A DNA stretch of 64,000 bases from contig JAYEGS010000244.1 of assembly GCA_034659215.1 (NCBI GenBank), positions 12,659 to 76,658 on the forward strand. The letters are read 5' to 3'. Below the pieces are notes generated by a model that searched no databases, was not told where the DNA came from, and saw only the letters and a program-made list of their open reading frames with translations. Made by a program: the position numbers and the translations under genes. Numbering within the stretch: position 1 is the stretch's first letter; each line of letters starts with the position of its first letter. Source of the stretch: Pseudomonadota bacterium. GTDB taxonomy: Bacteria > Desulfobacterota > Anaeroferrophillalia > Anaeroferrophillales > Tharpellaceae. Positions 7,647-58,244 of the stretch are shown here, in pieces.

Positions 7647-9317
7647 TTGAGTAACGAATTTTACGAGATCCAGAATCTCGAAGATAATTTCAGCCTGCTC
7701 CTAACCGAAACTTCCAGTCAGGTGGAGCGCTCGTTCACGTTCATAGAGACTTTTTCGCAAGATCTTTACGAAAAGGTCGTCCAACGCGACGACTACATCG
7801 ACAACCTCAAGCTGACCATTGAAAATCAATGTTTTGACTCACTGCGTAAACTTACCAGTAAAAACAAAGAAGAGATGTCTCAGATTCGGGCGCGTCAGAT
7901 TATCTGCGTTAACCTGGAAAAGATCGCCGATTTCTGCGTCAATATCTGCAAGCAGGTTGAGTTTATCCACGATAAGGATTTCTGGCTACAATTCAGTTTT
8001 CAACCAATGTGCCGAATGATAGAGGAGAACCTCAAGCAAATCGAAGCTACCCTTAGCGAGAAAAGTGTGGCCAAAGCCATGATCATCTGCCGGTCGGAGT
8101 GTGAACTTGACGATCTCTTCAAGGAAAATTTTGACCAGATAATGCTTTTTCTCCGGACCGGAGAGCAGGTCGATACCTGCGTGACCACCCTCTTCATCTT
8201 CCGCTATCTCGAACGTATGGGGGACTCTCTGCTTAATATCGGAGAAGCAATACTGCTGGCAATACTGGGTGATAAAATAAAGATCCGTCAGTTTGAAGCG
8301 ATGCAGCAGAGCCTTGATCAATCAGGCATGGAGATTCCACCGGAAAAACTTGAAGTAAACTCATTTCTGGGAACCCGTTCCGGCTGCAATATAAGCCGAC
8401 TGGCAAACGAAGTTAACCAGGGTTTAAGCGATGAACGTCGGGAGGGTCTGTTTAAATCGGGAAACCCCGAGAAAATCGAGCGGGAAAAGGATAATATTGA
8501 AGAGTGGTCAAGGATAAAACCGGGCCTTGTGCCAAAGATATTCTCCTTCCAGAAAGAGCCGGACCGCAGTTCAATGCTGGTGGAATTTCTATCTGGCCAG
8601 ACACTTGAAGCTACGATAGTCTCCTGCAGCTGGCTGGAAATTGACCAGATTATGAATGAACTCAAGGCAAACATTGTTGAGATCTGGAAAAAAACCGCGA
8701 TCAGGAAACCGACTCCCACTAACTACATGGACCAGCTTTTAAAAAGAACTGAGGCGATCAGGACAATCCACCCTGATATCATGTCGGATGGTCAGATTAT
8801 TGGCGGAGTTGAAATCCCCTCGGCAGAAACTCTGGTAAAAAATTGCCGCCACTGGGAGAGCCGGACACCAGCCCCCTTTTCAGTCTTTGGTCACGGCGAT
8901 TTCAATGTTAACAATGTTCTCTATGATTTTGAGAAACAGGCCCTTCACTACATCGACCTCTACCGCTCACATCGGGCTGACTACCTGGAAGATGTTGCGG
9001 TTTTTCTGGTTTCCAACTTTCGCCTGCCGATTTTTGACCGGGAGACCCGTAAAAAAATCAACAAAACGATTATCAGCTTTTACGATTTTGCCCACGATTT
9101 TGCTCAAAAGAACAAGGATCAGACCTTTGCCCTGCGCCTGGCTCTGGCACTGGCAAGATCCTTCATGACTTCAACCAGATTTGAACAAAAACGAAAATTC
9201 TCCCGGGAGATGGGATTGCGCTCAACCTATCTTTTAGAAAGAATTGATCGACATTTGAGCAGCAATGGTTCACCGGTTGATTTTTCTTTCCCCAGGAGTA
9301 TACTTATCTTGCCCTAA
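7647..9317 (+). CDS. PhoU-like domain fused to a protein-kinase-like/APH-fold phosphotransferase
   Basis: N-terminus has PhoU signatures: DDYIDNLKLTIENQ and RYLERMGDSLLNIGE (compare ERIGDHATNIAE). C-terminus has HGDFNVNNVLYD, a kinase-like HGDxxxxN catalytic loop, and DLYRS (DxD-like). Confidence 0.55.
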   Translation: MSNEFYEIQNLEDNFSLLLTETSSQVERSFTFIETFSQDLYEKVVQRDDYIDNLKLTIENQCFDSLRKLTSKNKEEMSQIRARQIICVNLEKIADFCVNICKQVEFIHDKDFWLQFSFQPMCRMIEENLKQIEATLSEKSVAKAMIICRSECELDDLFKENFDQIMLFLRTGEQVDTCVTTLFIFRYLERMGDSLLNIGEAILLAILGDKIKIRQFEAMQQSLDQSGMEIPPEKLEVNSFLGTRSGCNISRLANEVNQGLSDERREGLFKSGNPEKIEREKDNIEEWSRIKPGLVPKIFSFQKEPDRSSMLVEFLSGQTLEATIVSCSWLEIDQIMNELKANIVEIWKKTAIRKPTPTNYMDQLLKRTEAIRTIHPDIMSDGQIIGGVEIPSAETLVKNCRHWESRTPAPFSVFGHGDFNVNNVLYDFEKQALHYIDLYRSHRADYLEDVAVFLVSNFRLPIFDRETRKKINKTIISFYDFAHDFAQKNKDQTFALRLALALARSFMTSTRFEQKRKFSREMGLRSTYLLERIDRHLSSNGSPVDFSFPRSILILP

Positions 9318-9320
9318 ACT

Positions 9321-9329
9321 AAATAACCT
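9321..9329. repeat. 9-bp target-site duplication AAATAACCT (left copy)
   Basis: Identical 9-mer at 10646..10654, immediately outside the IS inverted repeats. Confidence 0.7.
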
Positions 9330-10645
9330 CAGTGTTGTCCGGTTAGGAATTTGCATGTAAAAAATATAGAAGAAAATTGAAAATAATGTCATTTTTTACT
9401 TGACATTCGAGCAATAGTGCGCGCGCGATTTTACCTGTAATATCAACTACTTACAGGGGGAATTGTAAATGCCGCGCACTTTGTCACCAAAAAAATTTGG
9501 TCGATTACCATCGTTTAAATCAGTCCTCTTTCCGCTTACTGGAGCATCTTGTGGCGTTCCAGAATTAATATCTGGAAGTAATAGAGATTTGAAAATGACA
9601 TTTGAAGATCAACTTAAAGTTATGGTCTACTTCCATTTGAAAGATTTTAAGTCTGGTTGCCACCTGCTACAAGATCTACAGGAAGATGACTTTGCAAAAG
9701 AGTTTATAGCCCCCAATGGTGGAATCGGTAAAAGTACATTTTTTGATTCGCTAAACGAACGTGGCCTCGAACAATTCTTACACGTTTTTCAAAATCTGTT
9801 TAAACAAGCGAGTAATCAGATACCTAAAGAATTTTCTGAACTGGGAGATCTGGTTGCCATTGATGGTTCCCTGATCGATTCGGTTCTCTCCATGGTCTGG
9901 GCCGACTATCGCAAAGGGTCAAAAAAAGCAAAAGTCCATTTTGGGTTTAACGTTAATTGCTCTATTCCACAAAAGGTTTTTTTAACCGATGGCAATGGAG
10001 CCGAACGGCCTTTCGTTCAAAAAATTGTGGAACCAGGTCAAACAGGCATAATGGATAGGGGTTATCAAAGTCACGACCTGTTTGATCAATGGCAAGAAAA
10101 TGACGTCCATTTTGTCTGCAGAATCAAAGGCAATACTCAAAAAACTTGTATTAAAGAGCTTCCTTTTGAAACCGGGGGCGACATCTTCTATGATGCAGTG
10201 GTTCGCCTGGGTCAACCTGGCGTAAATGAGACTAAAAAGGATCTACGCCTGGTTGGTTATAAAATTGGCGACAAAAAATATTGGGTTGCGACCGACAGGT
10301 TTGATCTAACGGCTGAGCAGGTCGCCTTAATCTACAAACTGCGTTGGAACGTGGAATCTTTTTTTGCCTGGTGGAAACGCCATATGCGAGTATATCATTT
10401 AATTTCAAGAAGTAAGCATGGGTTAATGGTTCAAATATTATCAGGTCTTATCACATACCTGTTGCTCGCCATTTATTGTAACAATGAATTTGGCGAAAAA
10501 GTTAACATTAAGAGAGTGCGTGAATTACAAATAAAAATAGCCAATGAGATTCGCCAGCTGGATCAGGAACCTCCAGATTTTGATCCGGTGGAAGAAAACT
10601 GGACAGAACCATTATTGCAAGCAAATCTCTAACCGGACACCACTG
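9330..10645 (+). mobile_element. IS4-family insertion sequence (1316 bp), intact
   Basis: Left inverted repeat CAGTGTTGTCCGGTTA at 9330..9345. The right one at 10630..10645 reads CAGTGGTGTCCGGTTA as reverse complement, a 15/16 match. It is flanked by the 9-bp direct repeat and holds a single DDE transposase ORF. Confidence 0.8.
9469..10632 (+). CDS. IS4-family DDE transposase
   Basis: DDE residues lie in VAIDGSLID, IMDRGYQS and YKLRWNVESFFAWWKRH (the Y-x2-R-x3-E-x6-K IS4 signature). The stop codon overlaps the right inverted repeat. Confidence 0.85.
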   Translation: MPRTLSPKKFGRLPSFKSVLFPLTGASCGVPELISGSNRDLKMTFEDQLKVMVYFHLKDFKSGCHLLQDLQEDDFAKEFIAPNGGIGKSTFFDSLNERGLEQFLHVFQNLFKQASNQIPKEFSELGDLVAIDGSLIDSVLSMVWADYRKGSKKAKVHFGFNVNCSIPQKVFLTDGNGAERPFVQKIVEPGQTGIMDRGYQSHDLFDQWQENDVHFVCRIKGNTQKTCIKELPFETGGDIFYDAVVRLGQPGVNETKKDLRLVGYKIGDKKYWVATDRFDLTAEQVALIYKLRWNVESFFAWWKRHMRVYHLISRSKHGLMVQILSGLITYLLLAIYCNNEFGEKVNIKRVRELQIKIANEIRQLDQEPPDFDPVEENWTEPLLQANL

Positions 10646-10654
10646 AAATAACCT
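10646..10654. repeat. 9-bp target-site duplication AAATAACCT (right copy)
   Basis: Matches 9321..9329. Confidence 0.7.
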
Positions 10655-10682
10655 CTTACTCAACCTATTGAGGAATCAATAT

Positions 10683-27454: not shown

Positions 27455-27730
27455 ATTATAATGTCACTTTGTAACTATTCTGCTAACCCGAAAATTCAGG
27501 GGACATATATCAATATATGTTACATCGTAACTATTCAGCGTAATGTACTCTTCAAACTATCTCGATACGGGGACATTGCTCCAGGCGGCGGCTGCTAAGC
27601 CTTTATGCCGGTCTGAGCTGCGCTGTGAGCGAAGCGAGGAAGTACTCTTGGGGTGTGTCCCCCTCGAAGCCGGGCGAAGCCAATGTTCGCACCATTTGCA
27701 GTGGCTTTAAGGTAATCACGCTGAATAGTT
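27455..27730. repeat. MITE-like element, family A core flanked by 15-nt TIRs GTAACTATTCAGCGT / ACGCTGAATAGTTAC
   Basis: Left TIR at 27527..27541 and right TIR, its exact reverse complement, at 27711..27725. An extra partial left end is at 27463..27480. The core is shared with 41021.., 46036.. and 57985... Confidence 0.65.
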
Positions 27731-28766
27731 ACGTCACTTTTTCTAGCAACTTTTCCAATTCCTTTACCCGTTTTTCGAGATTTGCCAGACGTCCGCGATC
27801 TTTGGGCAGGTGGGTGGCGGCCATCATCTGGCGCAGGGCTTGTTTGACCGGAATTGCCGGAATGCCGCCGTAATCTTGATCTCCGGGAAGAGATTTGGCC
27901 GCTGAGGTGCCGCCCATCAGGCGGGCCCGGTCGCCGATTGTTATATGGTCGACCATGCCGACCCTGGGGCCCAGCATCACCTGATTGCCGATCCGGACAC
28001 TGCCGGAGATGCCGACCTGGGCGCACATGATTCCTTCATGACCAACTTTAACCCCGTGGCCTAAGTGGACGTGGTCGTCGATTTTGGTGCCGCGGCCGAC
28101 GACGGTTTCATCCATCGCTGCCCGATTGACGGTCGAGAGAGCGCCAATTTCGACATCATCTTCAATAATGACCCGGCCGATCTGGGGGATTTTAACATTG
28201 CAGCCGCCAACCTGAAAAAAACCGAAACCATCCGAGCCGATGACCGAATTTGGATGAATCATGACCCGGTCGCCAAGACAACAATTTTCGCGAATCACGA
28301 CTCCGGGATAGAGGTGGCAATCGGAACCGATTTTTACCCTTCTGCCGATGTAGGTGTTGGCATAGATACGACAGTTATCACCGATAACCGCATCATCGCA
28401 GATAACCGCTCCGGGTCCGATATGCAGGTTATCACCCAAGGAGACATTCTCACCGATAGCTGCCGTTTGATCAATTCGGTAATCGACCATCTGGGCGGCT
28501 TTGTCGATCTCCATCATTATAAGACCCGCGGCCCGGAAGGGCTGGTCACAGATAATCAGGGCTTGTGGTAGATTCTCTACTTTTCTGGGAACGAGCAAAG
28601 CTCCGGCTTTTGAGGCGGCAGCTTTTTCGAGAAATTTCTCTTCGGCAAAGGAGAGTTCATCAACTGAAGCCGCCTCCAGACTGTTGATACCGGTCACCAC
28701 CAGATTTTCATCCCCGACAACCTCACCACCAACCTTGTCGGCAATTTGAGCAAGAGTGTAACGCAT
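27729..28766 (-). CDS. lpxD: UDP-3-O-acylglucosamine N-acyltransferase
   Basis: Typical LpxD N-terminus (MRYTLAQIADKVGGEVVGDENLVVTGI), hexapeptide repeats throughout, and a coiled-coil C-terminus. Confidence 0.8.
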   Translation of the reverse strand: MRYTLAQIADKVGGEVVGDENLVVTGINSLEAASVDELSFAEEKFLEKAAASKAGALLVPRKVENLPQALIICDQPFRAAGLIMMEIDKAAQMVDYRIDQTAAIGENVSLGDNLHIGPGAVICDDAVIGDNCRIYANTYIGRRVKIGSDCHLYPGVVIRENCCLGDRVMIHPNSVIGSDGFGFFQVGGCNVKIPQIGRVIIEDDVEIGALSTVNRAAMDETVVGRGTKIDDHVHLGHGVKVGHEGIMCAQVGISGSVRIGNQVMLGPRVGMVDHITIGDRARLMGGTSAAKSLPGDQDYGGIPAIPVKQALRQMMAATHLPKDRGRLANLEKRVKELEKLLEKVT

Positions 28767-37254: not shown

Positions 37255-37400
37255 CGTTTTAAATGCGTATTCGGGCGTATTCCGCGTGGTATTCGAGGTA
37301 TTCCGGGGACACCATACTTAACTATTATTAAATATGGAACAATTATTGTAACTTTTTATCTAACCCGCAAACTCAGGCTACACAATCTCGATTTTCTTCG
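37255..37400. repeat. intergenic repeat modules (D: GTATTC tandem + ATTCCGGGGACACC; B-like TTGTAACT..TAACCCG..TCAGG)
   Basis: D matches 55040..55095 and the reverse complement of 57925..57975. The B-like part matches 27463..27495. Confidence 0.6.
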
Positions 37401-37798: not shown

Positions 37799-37804
37799 AT
37801 TGTT

Positions 37805-37935
37805 TACCTGTCTCGGCTGGGGTCATTTCTTGACACTTGGCGGCCGTAAGGTTCGCGTTAAACCAAAATTTTAATCCGCCATTTGTCAAGATGTGACCCC
37901 GTTAATGGGGGCGAAGCAAATTTCACTCTAACTTC
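37805..37935. repeat. intergenic repeat module E (hairpin-forming)
   Basis: ~75% identical to 57782..57905 (GGCGG.TGTAAGGTTCGCGT...CCGCCATTTGTCAAGATGTGACC). Confidence 0.6.
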
Positions 37936-37972
37936 AGCCACTTAATTGGGTCGTGCGCAAAGCCCGTACTAT

Positions 37973-40632: not shown

Positions 40633-40744
40633 TAGATATTATGGTTCATTTGTTAAAGGGTTTGAGACTGGCTGAATTTGCGTTACTTTATCTCTTGACT
40701 GTGCAATAATGTCAAGGCTAAAAAAGGTTTAAACCACTACCGGG

Positions 40745-40935
40745 CGTTCAGGCGCTTGTCTCTCCACTTCTTACGTAAAATTTCTGTTTTTCCAGCGCTC
40801 ATTACGCTGAAATTGAAGAACTCGCTCGTGCCTCGCTCAAACAGCTTCAATTTCAGGCGCGTAATTTATGCCCTTTGGGTATTCGCTGGGAAAAACGACG
40901 AAATTTTTCGAGACGTTCCGAGAAACCGCCTGACC
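40745..40935. repeat. repeat family C copy 1: ~190-nt imperfect long hairpin
   Basis: TTTTTCCAGCG pairs with CGCTGGGAAAAA, and CTGAAATTGAAG with CTTCAATTTCAG. A second copy lies at 54855..55025. Confidence 0.65.
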
Positions 40936-41020
40936 GCCCTCTGGGCTGAGTAGTTACAAAAAAAGTTTGTTGACTTGTTACTGGAAACTTATTAAGGCTG
41001 ACGGCTTCGTGAAAACTCCA

Positions 41021-41235
41021 CACTATCTCGGTGTGGGGTCAGACCTCCAGGCGCCGGCTGTAAGCCGGTTGCCGATCTGAGTTTGCGCCCTGAGCGATAG
41101 CGAGGAAGTGCCCTTGGGGTAACCGTCCTCGAAGCCGGGCGAAGCCAAAATAACAACTTTGCCGCTTTTAACTTAATGCGGTTGGCGCGAACATCACTTT
41201 GCCCTCTTCTAAGGGGTCTGACCTCCAGGCCGAAG
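41021..41235. repeat. repeat family A copy 2 (with internal duplication of the GGGGTCxGACCTCCAGGC head)
   Basis: It shares CTATCTCGGTG.GGGG.CA.ACCTCCAGGC...CTGAGC...TCCTCGAAGCCGGGCGAAGCC with the other A copies. Confidence 0.65.
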
Positions 41236-41266
41236 TTACAATTGAATTTTACAGGCTTATAAAAAA

Positions 41267-41692
41267 ATGGAAGTGCTGGGTCGACATCTGTTGGTGGAAC
41301 TTTTCTCCTGCGACGAAGAGGTTCTTGATAATCTTGAGAAGATTGAGGCGTTAATGATGGTGGCGGCTCGGGCTTCCGGGGCGACTATTGTTCAGTCGGT
41401 CTTTCATCGTTTTCAGCCGCATGGGATTAGTGGGGTGGTTGTGATTGCCGAGTCGCACCTGGCGATTCACACTTGGCCCGAACATGGTTATGCCGCAGTC
41501 GACTTTTTTACCTGTGGAGCGGATATCGACTATTGGCAGGCTCACGATCTTCTCAAAGAGGCTTTCGCGGCGGGCGATTCTGAAGTTCGGGAGCTTTTTC
41601 GTGGTGGTGAGCGTGATGCTGCGGGTAAATTGGGTCGGAAAAATAGTGATTTGGTAAATAGTGAGTCGAAAAAAATGAGTCGGGAAAAATAG
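41267..41692 (+). CDS. speH: S-adenosylmethionine decarboxylase proenzyme (SpeH type)
   Basis: VIAESHLAIHTWPE is the processing-site region of the SpeH type. Confidence 0.7.
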   Translation: MEVLGRHLLVELFSCDEEVLDNLEKIEALMMVAARASGATIVQSVFHRFQPHGISGVVVIAESHLAIHTWPEHGYAAVDFFTCGADIDYWQAHDLLKEAFAAGDSEVRELFRGGERDAAGKLGRKNSDLVNSESKKMSREK

Positions 41693-46038: not shown

Positions 46039-46175
46039 AAATTCGTAACTATTCAGCGTAGTATCGTCTTCAAGCTATCTCGGTGCGGGGACATACCTCC
46101 AGGCCGGGCTTTAGCCCGTGACGAGCTGAGCTGTGTCCCCCTCGAAGTGGGCGAAGCGATGTTCGCATCATTTGT
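46036..46175. repeat. repeat family A copy 3 with left TIR only
   Basis: CGTAACTATTCAGCGTAGTATCGTCTTCAAGCTATCTCGGTGCGGGGACATACCTCCAGGCC... Confidence 0.6.
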
Positions 46176-54810: not shown

Positions 54811-54854
54811 AAAAACAGTTGTATTCAGCTAGAAGAAAGTAACCCGGGATATCG

Positions 54855-55025
54855 GGTTACTTTCTTCCACTTCTTACGCAAAATTTTTGTTTTTCCAGCG
54901 CTCATTACGCCAAAATTGCGAAACTCACTCGTACCCCGTTCAGACAGTCGCAATTTTTTTGGCTTCTTTCGCTGGGAAAAACGACAAAATTTTGCGAGAC
55001 GTTACAGAAAACAACCCGATATCCC
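54855..55025. repeat. repeat family C copy 2 (long hairpin, covaries with copy 1)
   Basis: CCACTTCTTACGCAAAATTTTTGTTTTTCCAGCGCTCATTACGCCAAAATTGCGA...TCGCAATTTTTTTGGC...CGCTGGGAAAAACGACAAAATTTTGCGAGACGTT. Confidence 0.65.
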
Positions 55026-55039
55026 TAGAATTCATCTAA

Positions 55040-55100
55040 GCAAAGTTACCTCTAATTCCGGGGCTCGGAATTCCGGGGACACCTTACTTATCTTTCACAA
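55040..55100. repeat. repeat module D (tandem AATTCCGGGG(A/C)...) plus a solo TIR fragment at 55153..55170
   Basis: CTAATTCCGGGGCTCGGAATTCCGGGGACACCTTACTTA. GCTGAATAGTTGCG at 55156 resembles the family-B TIR. Confidence 0.55.
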
Positions 55101-55172
55101 TTGAAAACTGCCCCCCCCTCTCAAAAAAAAACGGCAAAAAGAAGGAATACAGGGGCAGCTGAATAGTTGCGT

Positions 55173-56282: not shown

Positions 56283-56557
56283 AACGGTTTCCTTATCTCT
56301 TAAGTTTGGGGGTTGTGCAGGAAAAATGTTCTGTAAAAATGATTAATTGTGACTAGGAGCCTGTCTGAGAATGTCTTTTTTTCCCATATCTGCGTTATGC
56401 TCAAAAAATTATCCTCGGAATACTTAATGTATGCCTGCGGTAATTTTCTTCGCATGCCTTGATCTGAGAAAAAAATCCTATTCTCGGACAACCTCCTATG
56501 TAGGGCTCTATATCAGAAAATGATGAAAAATGCATATAAAATCATTTTGGGTCTGGC

Positions 56558-57494: not shown

Positions 57495-57840
57495 ATCTTG
57501 CCCGGCGTACAGAGATAATTCTGGTGTTTTCTCCGCGATACGTGATGATACCTGACCAGTGTTTTTCAGCTATCTTGCCAACAACTAAAAACCTCTCTTC
57601 GTCTGTTGTTCTGGCCGGGATCTCCAATAGGTAGGAATCTTCCCAGAGTGCCTGGGCCTCAATAAAATCAATTCCATGTTTCTTTTTGTTGATGTATGAT
57701 TTGGAGGGGTCGAATTCGAATTTCATAGTATAATTATTATACCTAATAGATGTATTATTGTCAATAGTTTGAAGTTGAAGAAGGGGCAGGTCTTGAAATA
57801 GTTGGCGGTTGTAAGGTTCGCGTAAAGCCAGAACTTTCAC
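57466..57840 (-). CDS. brnT: BrnT-type ribonuclease toxin (DUF497)
   Basis: FEFDPSKSYINKKKHGIDFIEAQALWED...RIISVRRA matches the BrnT family. Confidence 0.6.
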   Translation of the reverse strand: MKVLALREPYNRQLFQDLPLLQLQTIDNNTSIRYNNYTMKFEFDPSKSYINKKKHGIDFIEAQALWEDSYLLEIPARTTDEERFLVVGKIAEKHWSGIITYRGENTRIISVRRARYEEIKIYES

Positions 57841-58075
57841 CCGCCATTTGTCAAGATGTGACCTCGATAGTGGTCGCGAAGCAAAGTTCGCGGTTGCTCG
57901 CTTCTACCTTTCATGGCAGGTTTTTCTGAGTTAGGTAAGGTGTCCCCGGAATTCGGTGTCCCCGGAATTCGGAAAACTTCACTCTTGCTCGGTGTGGGGA
58001 CAGACCTCCAGGCGCCGGCTGCAAGCCGGTTGCCGCTCTGAGCTCTGTCCCCTTCGAAGCCGGGCGAAGCCCATA
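57782..58075. repeat. composite of repeat modules E (57782..57905), D inverted and tandem (57925..57975) and A copy 4 (57985..58075)
   Basis: Matches 37805.., 55056.. (reverse complement) and 27561.. / 41021.. respectively. Confidence 0.6.
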
Positions 58076-58244
58076 TCAAAACTAACCGGTTTTAACTTAA
58101 CAGTGAGACGTTAACCGGGAATTTTCGATTAATTGATGATCCCCATGAACCCCATTAATTTAAAAAATAAGTTGAAAAATGGTTGGATTATTCGATAAAG
58201 AGGATTATGGTGGAAGAAATGAAATTTCAGGGATTGGGGAAGTT

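Follow-up and report, generated by a model that had tools for sequence, protein, structure and literature searches.

The window, by which we mean the whole stretch of 64,000 nucleotides analysed here, contains two copies of a long-hairpin repeat. Copy 1 has inserted at an A-rich site within the promoter region that separates the divergently oriented yifB/comM-like and AdoMet-decarboxylase genes, and copy 2 starts 5 nt past the selA stop codon. An earlier note had placed them at 40745–40935 and 54855–55025 as members of one ~190-nt family. Reading of the window sequence confirmed both copies at these positions and the quoted strings as exact, with each end block occurring exactly twice. The 23-mer TGTTTTTCCAGCGCTCATTACGC has two exact matches in the 64-kb window against a chance expectation of 0.00, and the 18-mer TTCGCTGGGAAAAACGAC has two against 0.07. 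In a pairwise alignment of the copies, long identical blocks are separated by differing segments. The size of ~190 nt holds for the hairpin only, as the true repeat units, with limits set by homology to full-length relatives and by empty-site comparison, are longer (231 and 232 nt). The features of the two copies are as follows.

40727..40957, plus strand: copy 1, a MITE of subfamily A, 231 nt (alignment with 11 other A copies, blastn, empty sites)
40741..40938, plus strand: hairpin domain of copy 1 (folds, consensus structure, pair counts)
40861..40881, plus strand: 21-nt mini-hairpin module GTAATTTATGCCCTTTGGGTA in copy 1, replacing TCCA of the A consensus (alignment)
40944..40957, plus strand: 3′ TIR of copy 1, GGCTGAGTAGTTAC (consensus GCTGAATAGTTAC; TIR search, A alignment)
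54816..55047, plus strand: copy 2, a MITE of subfamily B, 232 nt (alignment with 23 B copies, blastn)
54832..54867, plus strand: perfect 15-bp (+G·T) local hairpin peculiar to copy 2 (comparison with the B consensus, DNA fold)
54844..55026, plus strand: hairpin domain of copy 2 (folds, pair counts)

Each copy folds into a single long, imperfect hairpin of ~85 bp, in agreement with the earlier proposal that the ends fold back on themselves. The RNA folds have energies of −63.5 kcal/mol (z −4.8) for copy 1 and −49.8 kcal/mol (z −5.8) for copy 2, and the DNA folds −47.1 (z −5.2) and −49.6 kcal/mol (z −8.5), respectively; none of the dinucleotide shuffles equals the fold energy of either copy. The hairpin of copy 1 consists of outer helices, a 21-bp central helix, an inner helix and an apical loop of ~26 nt. 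The inner arms differ between the copies, yet are complementary within each (CTGAAATTGAAG/CTTCAATTTCAG in copy 1 and CCAAAATTGCGA/TCGCAATTTTTTGG in copy 2), as had been pointed out. The outer arms, which had escaped attention, behave likewise (GGGCGTTCAGGCG/CGCCTGA(C)CGCCC versus GGGATATCGGGT/ACCCGATATCCC), differing between copies with pairing kept within each.

Contrary to a simple transposon model, neither copy has both ends intact. Copy 1 has kept its 3′ TIR but lacks GTAACTGTTCAGCGTCCTATTGA, which is the canonical 5′ TIR segment in A copies of full length. Copy 2 is 93–96% identical to B copies over 54812–55047 (blastn); its 5′ TIR is degenerate (CAGTTGTATTCAGCTAG), and its final ~17 nt (CTAACCGGACAGTRCTG) are lost after 55047, where another repeat module has taken their place. 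Each short of one end, both copies are probably immobile.

Other repeat modules flank both copies, as the note had observed, and some are nested within the elements themselves (L numbers below denote retrieved loci). The 21-nt module of copy 1 is absent from nine of the 12 aligned A copies. L022, L032, L003 (B) and L047 (C) carry it at the corresponding position; L003, L015 and L043 have it at a different site, and in L013 and L051 it lies within an unrelated repeat. The insertion is nested and optional. Occurrences of this module (~21 nt, AATTTATRCCCTTTRGGGTR) are located at 40861–40881 in the window and at L003:2400 and 2505, L013:1143 and L051:551 (reverse complement), and it has the appearance of a tiny nested unit that is mobile or recombining. 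A 35-nt module, GCGCCCTGAGCGATAGCGAGGAAGTGCCCTTGGGG, occurs at 41085–41119 inside the repeat neighbouring copy 1, as well as at L029:61 and L032:4679 (reverse complement); in L029, it interrupts the 3′ arm of a B copy in the opposite orientation.

The window holds at least three more intergenic repeat families (37800–37949 and 57802–57889; 56353–56498; 37297–37323 and 55067–55093), also present in Tharpella-like loci at 75–94% identity. A repeat finder further reported direct repeats of 70–139 nt with 81–93% identity (59046–59184/60976–61114, 24648–24717/26702–26771 and 24868–24945/57471–57548), which may be duplicated coding segments or further repeat families. Separately, the divergent yifB/AdoMet-decarboxylase spacer contains an inverted repeat, TTGACTGTGCAATAATGTCAAG, at 40696–40717, with copy 1 inserted 9 nt away. 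Three related genomes have retained this inverted repeat in the form TTGACTGTAGGTGAATGTCAAG, and it may serve as an operator or promoter element.

Subfamilies, transposon ends and empty sites

For a census of the family, the 18-mer TTTCCAGCGCTCATTACG was scanned in one genome per species (185,579 species). Of the 44 loci retrieved, about 35 are true copies from eight MAGs, the remainder being chance matches in unrelated sequence; the tally for these MAGs is about 38 copies, and a metagenome scan with a degenerate 3′-arm pattern added 13 further loci. About 50 copies were recovered in total from the eight Tharpella-like MAGs and the metagenomes; as the copies were found through conserved-core patterns, the census is biased toward conserved cores. 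The MAGs are labelled Candidatus Tharpella aukensis or Tharpella sp., ‘Deltaproteobacteria’ CSMAG_305/1647/2054, ‘Pseudomonadota’ MAG091 and two ‘Thermodesulfobacteriota’ bins. One fragmentary MAG alone accounts for 14 loci, and the window has a density of 2 copies per 64 kb. The candidate phylum Tharpellota, described from marine hydrothermal sediments, has Tharpella as its type genus (PMC9213671). The window and the census loci have only repeats in common (blastn), and window proteins are 90–92% identical to proteins of the CSMAG MAGs. One NCBI protein of a ‘Pseudomonadota’ MAG matches at about 100% identity, and the source of the window is accordingly a close relative belonging to the same group. 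No paper on repeats in Tharpellota came up in a literature search.

The copies occur one by one, scattered between housekeeping genes. The interrupted copies L009 and L027 are truncations adjoining host genes. Insertion of an IS was ruled out in both, as the truncations lie beside host genes and a host ORF enters the element in L027. This ORF (L027:2441–3037, 198 aa) takes its last ~36 codons and its stop from the reverse strand of a truncated A copy, and is a gene–MITE fusion.

The two window copies do not represent one family that diverged in place, as the note had assumed; they belong to two subfamilies with different transposon ends. Thus, most of the “compensatory” differences between copy 1 and copy 2 are subfamily-level differences that did not arise at these loci. 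Full-length members of subfamily A (copy 1) are about 235–255 nt, start with GTAACTRTTCAGCG and end with its complement CGCTGAATAGTTAC, while those of subfamily B (copy 2) are about 250 nt, start with CAGTRCTGTCCGGTTAG and end with its complement CTAACCGGACAGTRCTG. By systematic flank extraction, copies with both TIRs measure 224–254 bp (A and C) and 248–284 bp (B). Variants C, D, E and F carry new arm sequences and have ends that are A-like, B-like or possibly of a third kind. On average, copies are 93% identical within A and likewise 93% within B, and 74.5% identical between A and B. The target duplications of B are 9 bp (ATTATTTCA, AAAAATATC and ACTTTGAAT in L010, L024 and L052), with an 8-bp duplication in the B copy L035. 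Those of A are 8 bp (AATTTTTA and ACCAATTT in L021 and L038), with 7 of 8 positions matching in four more copies. Copy 2 has no visible duplication because its 3′ end has been lost. The full element, 235–255 bp in length, is layered, combining short TIRs with an extended, imperfect hairpin of ~185 nt, and carries no gene.

A TIR search of the window identified an inverted pair of B-type ends 1.3 kb apart, which delimits a complete insertion sequence.

9321..9329, no strand: left 9-bp duplication of the insertion sequence, AAATAACCT (read from sequence)
9330..10645, plus strand: complete IS4-family insertion sequence, 1316 bp (TIR search, sequence, end alignment)
9469..10632, plus strand: DDE transposase of the insertion sequence, 387 aa (Pfam DDE_Tnp_1, NCBIfam transpos_IS4_1)
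10646..10654, no strand: right 9-bp duplication, AAATAACCT (read from sequence)

The transposase scores 200 bits with NCBIfam transpos_IS4_1 (cut-off 115) and 89 bits with Pfam DDE_Tnp_1, and the duplication is perfect on both sides. The point of insertion is flanked by a 556-aa ORF that ends at 9317 and a 302-aa ORF that starts at 10668. Approximately 27 nt at each end align with subfamily B, whereas the interior does not, and the hairpin core has no similarity to the IS interior. Since B shares the ends and the 9-bp duplication length of this IS, and not its interior, B is a type II MITE of that IS, which is presumably the element that mobilises B in trans. In a tblastn search, the window copy was the only copy of the IS4 element found.

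No corresponding partner was found for subfamily A, as no inverted pair of GTAACTATTCAGCG ends at IS-like spacing is present in 376 kb (window and loci). A repeat at 27471–27732 has GTAACTATTCAGCG ends as in subfamily A, a different, GC-rich interior and a duplication of 8 bp (GTCACTTT); a second 5′ end lies inside it at 27527. The same short GTAACTATTCAGCG-ended repeat family is also represented at 46043–46175, ~41003–41285 and 57972–58105.

Evidence for insertion at the copy 1 site comes from the orthologous yifB/comM-like–AdoMet-decarboxylase region, which was retrieved from three relatives (L065, L066 and L068). All three are uninterrupted at this site (GTCAAGGTGAAAAAG|TTTGTTGACTTG), where the window reads GTCAAGGCTAAAAAAG[231 nt]AAAAAAAGTTTGTTGACTTG. 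The empty-site junction GGTGAAAAA(A)G|TTTGTTGAC (GAAAAAG|TTTGTTGAC) corresponds to TAAAAAAG[element]AAAAAAAGTTTGTTGAC in the window, and two target duplications can be delimited.

40720..40726, no strand: left target duplication of copy 1, AAAAAAG (empty-site comparison)
40959..40965, no strand: right target duplication of copy 1, AAAAAAG (empty-site comparison)

The right AAAAAAG run is outside the element, since the sequence after GTTAC differs in all other A copies. Based on the three empty sites, copy 1 is thus an insertion at 40727–40957 with a 7–8-bp duplication. The left duplication abuts position ~24 of the A consensus, the 5′ TIR being missing; the TIR was lost after insertion, or else the element was already shortened and transposed by way of a cryptic end. 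The second repeat of this spacer (about 41003–41285) is also absent from the relatives.

The copy 2 site is polymorphic but rearranged, and is not a clean empty site. In the closest relative, L058 (flanks 90–96% identical), no hairpin element is present between selA and the aminotransferase gene; a different 1.07-kb filler, beginning with an A-type TIR, is found instead. A 171-aa protein encoded by this filler (L058:3669–4739, versus window 54811–55170) apparently has a hydrophobic/basic sorting tail at its C terminus, and the window filler after selA ends with a matching A-type TIR at 55157–55170. The two fillers suggest that a larger composite element with A-type ends has been remodelled in different ways in each lineage.

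The earlier note had offered two candidates, a structured sRNA and a hairpin-type MITE. The latter is supported by the TIRs, the 8- and 9-bp duplications, the IS4-family ends and the empty sites; the former is considered below.

Covariation and constraint in the hairpin core

For 41 copies that represent at least six subfamilies, RNAalifold gives one consensus hairpin with 56 pairs, arranged in seven helices. Standard pairs are formed in 97.2% of the stem cells, and 23 of the 56 pairs have changed on both sides, which upholds and greatly strengthens the co-variation of the arms first noticed in two copies. The covariation score is 0.261, compared to 0.121 for column shuffles (0 of 500 reached the observed value), and falls to 0.02–0.08 when the partner is slid by 1–3 columns. 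Much of this signal is at the subfamily level and hence reflects few events. Compensations also occur within subfamilies: at columns 67/181, one B sub-lineage has changed from G-C to A-U; in L041, a C-G pair has become U-A; and L054 has two compensated pairs. Both a wobble intermediate and the double change are seen at columns 72/176, 18/210 and 88/144. All subfamilies have the bulges, the internal loops and the ~26-nt apical loop in common, indicating that they descend from one already imperfect hairpin rather than from separate, fresh perfect palindromes.

Three pairs of copies occupy orthologous sites in two different species-level genomes each (L002/L039, L003/L040 and L023/L028). In 50-nt windows, their cores are 92–100% identical, except for a single L003/L040 window at 84%, compared to 77–88% for the flanks, which are mostly coding, and 60–74% for the element ends. 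Within the hairpin domain, 8 of 336 paired positions differ between orthologues (2.4%), versus 20 of 220 unpaired ones (9.1%; Fisher p=0.0006), and five of the eight stem differences still pair. Ascertainment cannot yield this contrast between stems and loops, as the search pattern fixes only 18 positions. Stems are either under purifying selection in place or homogenised by some process, and we infer that the hairpin structure is kept by selection.

Transposon anatomy, an IS partner, an empty site, covariation, and stems that change more slowly than loops and flanks are all observed. We consider it very probable that the copies are relics of two related type II MITE families of a Candidatus Tharpella/Tharpellota-group bacterium with a conserved hairpin core. 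According to this model, B elements would be cut and pasted in trans by the IS4-family DDE transposase, giving the same 9-bp duplication, and A elements, with their different ends GTAACTRTTCAGCG, would be inserted with 8-bp duplications. The core probably came to reside in families with at least two kinds of ends through insertion of one element into another and subsequent trimming. L024 offers an example of nesting, as a B element flanked by a 9-bp duplication of its own lies within an A-ended MITE; together with the nested 21- and 35-nt modules, this makes nesting and trimming a plausible route to chimeric families. The core would then have been kept through compensatory change. We can only guess that a single-stranded DNA or RNA hairpin aids mobilisation, or makes an insertion harmless or useful to neighbouring genes. 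IS4-family DDE transposases are not known to need an internal hairpin, so the transposon model alone leaves the conservation of the core unexplained.

The hairpin could also be maintained without selection, by template switching during replication or repair, which copies the other arm. A change in one arm would be erased or transferred to its partner, creating a mechanical “compensatory” pattern; the element would still be a MITE, and covariation would say nothing about function. We regard this as possible, albeit somewhat unlikely. It has a suggestive precedent in copy 2, where, through six clustered substitutions (within 14 nt), GGTAATTGCAACCC has become GAAGAAAGTAACCC. The new sequence is exactly complementary to GGGTTACTTTCTTC close by, and the two form the perfect local hairpin at 54832–54867 that is found in no other copy. 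A single template switch in a quasi-palindrome explains this change better than six independent mutations. In addition, several of the pairs compensated between subfamilies fall in adjacent blocks (columns 7–9, 23–25 and 98–101), and G·U and A·C mismatches are not asymmetric overall (24 versus 30 cells), as would be expected of a strand-symmetric DNA process. Template switching could therefore yield part of the “compensatory” pattern. However, the arms have not been perfected, with the bulges, internal loops and 26-nt apical loop persisting in all subfamilies, and stepwise wobble paths (U-A, U·G and C-G) are seen at columns 72/176 and 18/210. Template switching does not explain these persistent shared bulges, nor does it account for the much slower change of orthologous cores compared to the coding DNA beside them.

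Alternatively, the hairpin may be a functional structured RNA, either an sRNA gene or a cis-element (stabiliser, RNase III site or insulator), spread by transposition and selected by the host. The strong covariation, the loops that vary more than the stems, and the orthologues that keep their stems as the TIRs decay would all fit such an RNA, as would the loop motifs AACTCGC...GCTCAAACAG, which are conserved between subfamilies that differ in their stems. In the central helices, G·U mismatches outnumber A·C mismatches (15 versus 7), with one fixed U·G pair; the outer helices lean the opposite way, and the overall counts show no strand preference. MITE transcripts and MITE-derived sRNAs are known elsewhere (PMC10969869). 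On the other hand, Rfam contains no known element class that matches, with no family at gathering thresholds over the whole window or at E≤10 for either copy beyond noise (flavi_FSE, Yfr11 and miRNA models at 12–21 bits, far below cut-offs). A consensus scan detected no sigma-70-like promoter or intrinsic terminator inside either copy. Relative to neighbouring genes, both orientations occur without bias (10 versus 7 in tandem contexts), and the copies face 3′ and 5′ gene ends equally often, according to ORF calls that are crude and noisy (the gene to the right of copy 1, for example, is mis-called). A stand-alone sRNA gene thus has no positive support, and a host-selected structured RNA of any of these kinds seems unlikely to us.

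A small protein or toxin-like ORF was also considered. Most copies are open in one plus-strand frame of about 62 codons, and a minus-strand frame reads FERGTSEF.NF.VMSAGKT, with a TGA in that frame in many B copies. The frame shifts between A and B and the amino-acid changes are non-conservative; after a 1-nt indel, both alternative frames stay open. Judged by these reading frames, the elements are non-coding.

A further possibility is that the core itself is mobile through a hairpin-recognising enzyme (REP/RAYT-like or IS200/IS605-like HUH) and landed in two MITE backbones. The same core does reside between at least two unrelated kinds of ends, and the 21- and 35-nt hairpin modules show that small hairpins are nested in these repeats. 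We nevertheless consider this highly improbable, as similarity between subfamilies fades gradually outward with no sharp core boundary, no core copy was found outside a MITE-like context in 376 kb, and the duplications flank the TIRs, not the core. We also hold doubtful the more ambitious proposal that the ~150-nt core is a functional module (RNA or single-stranded DNA, with sequence-specific loop motifs) that was captured by at least two sets of ends, spread through Tharpellota and, at individual loci, has remained under purifying selection well after the decay of its ends, as a new domesticated regulatory or protein-binding family.

Relation to known repeats and implications

Several known systems are similar to these MITE families. 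Correia elements of Neisseria and ERIC/IRU elements of enterobacteria are imperfect intergenic palindromes of 100–160 bp that form long hairpins. ERIC elements have optional internal insertions at fixed sites and no known transposase, and Correia elements duplicate TA and carry promoter and IHF sites. The repeats described here share the long-hairpin, intergenic palindrome architecture, and the optional insertions of ERIC resemble the 21-nt module, but the sequences are unrelated and the hosts are of a different phylum. Very small nested repeats, hairpins of ~20–35 nt inside other repeats, have reportedly been found in cyanobacteria; they are comparable to the 21- and 35-nt modules only, not to the 190-nt hairpin. 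REP/BIME and IS200/IS605-derived palindromes are 20–40-nt GC-rich or end hairpins that lack target duplications and depend on an HUH (Y1) transposase. They were rejected, since the hairpin here is ~185 nt and AT-rich, with TIRs, 8–9-bp duplications and a DDE partner. Integron attC sites are hairpins conserved in structure, with R′′/R′ core sites, in cassette arrays next to intI. They were likewise rejected, as our copies are dispersed singly and flanked by duplications, with no array seen.

Close counterparts are the prokaryotic type II MITEs, such as QMITE1 and QMITE2 of Coxiella burnetii, which have been reviewed together with the defining features of prokaryotic MITEs, namely size, ends, duplications, AT-rich targets and a strong stem-loop (PMC10969869). 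The elements here are similarly <500 bp, with TIRs of 13–27 bp, direct repeats of 7–9 bp, AT-rich intergenic targets, a stable single-stranded stem-loop, and IS similarity confined to the TIRs. They possess every defining MITE feature that could be tested, an IS with the same ends being available for B and not for A. Unlike type II MITEs, one internal core is found here across families with different ends, and old orthologous copies keep the core better than the ends.

MITE-like repeats with compensatory structure are already known. As summarised by Delihas (2011; PMC3184786) from Klevan (2007), bcr1 of the Bacillus cereus group is a MITE-like element of ~155 bp with 5-bp duplications that is transcribed and whose structure is kept by compensatory changes. 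As far as that summary goes, the present elements resemble bcr1 in being MITE-like, with short direct repeats and a predicted double-stranded structure with compensatory changes. They differ from it in their 8–9-bp duplications and the IS4-family partner of one subfamily, and have no sequence relationship with it. Thus, the kind of MITE is ordinary; what is unusual, and mildly interesting, is a conserved core common to families with different ends and kept after insertion.

The repeats account for much of the intergenic clutter in the window, and probably also explain the short contigs obtained when genomes from this uncultured candidate phylum are assembled. They also provide a worked example of an IS4-family element together with its own type II MITE. 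For specialists, the main point is a transposon-borne hairpin whose sequence is kept better across species than that of the adjacent genes, with stems protected, loops free and ends decaying. Should templated repair of palindromes be responsible, covariation in palindromic repeats would have to be treated with caution as evidence of function. If the hairpin instead has a function at the level of the host, a mobile element would have seeded dozens of copies of one structured regulatory module across the genome.
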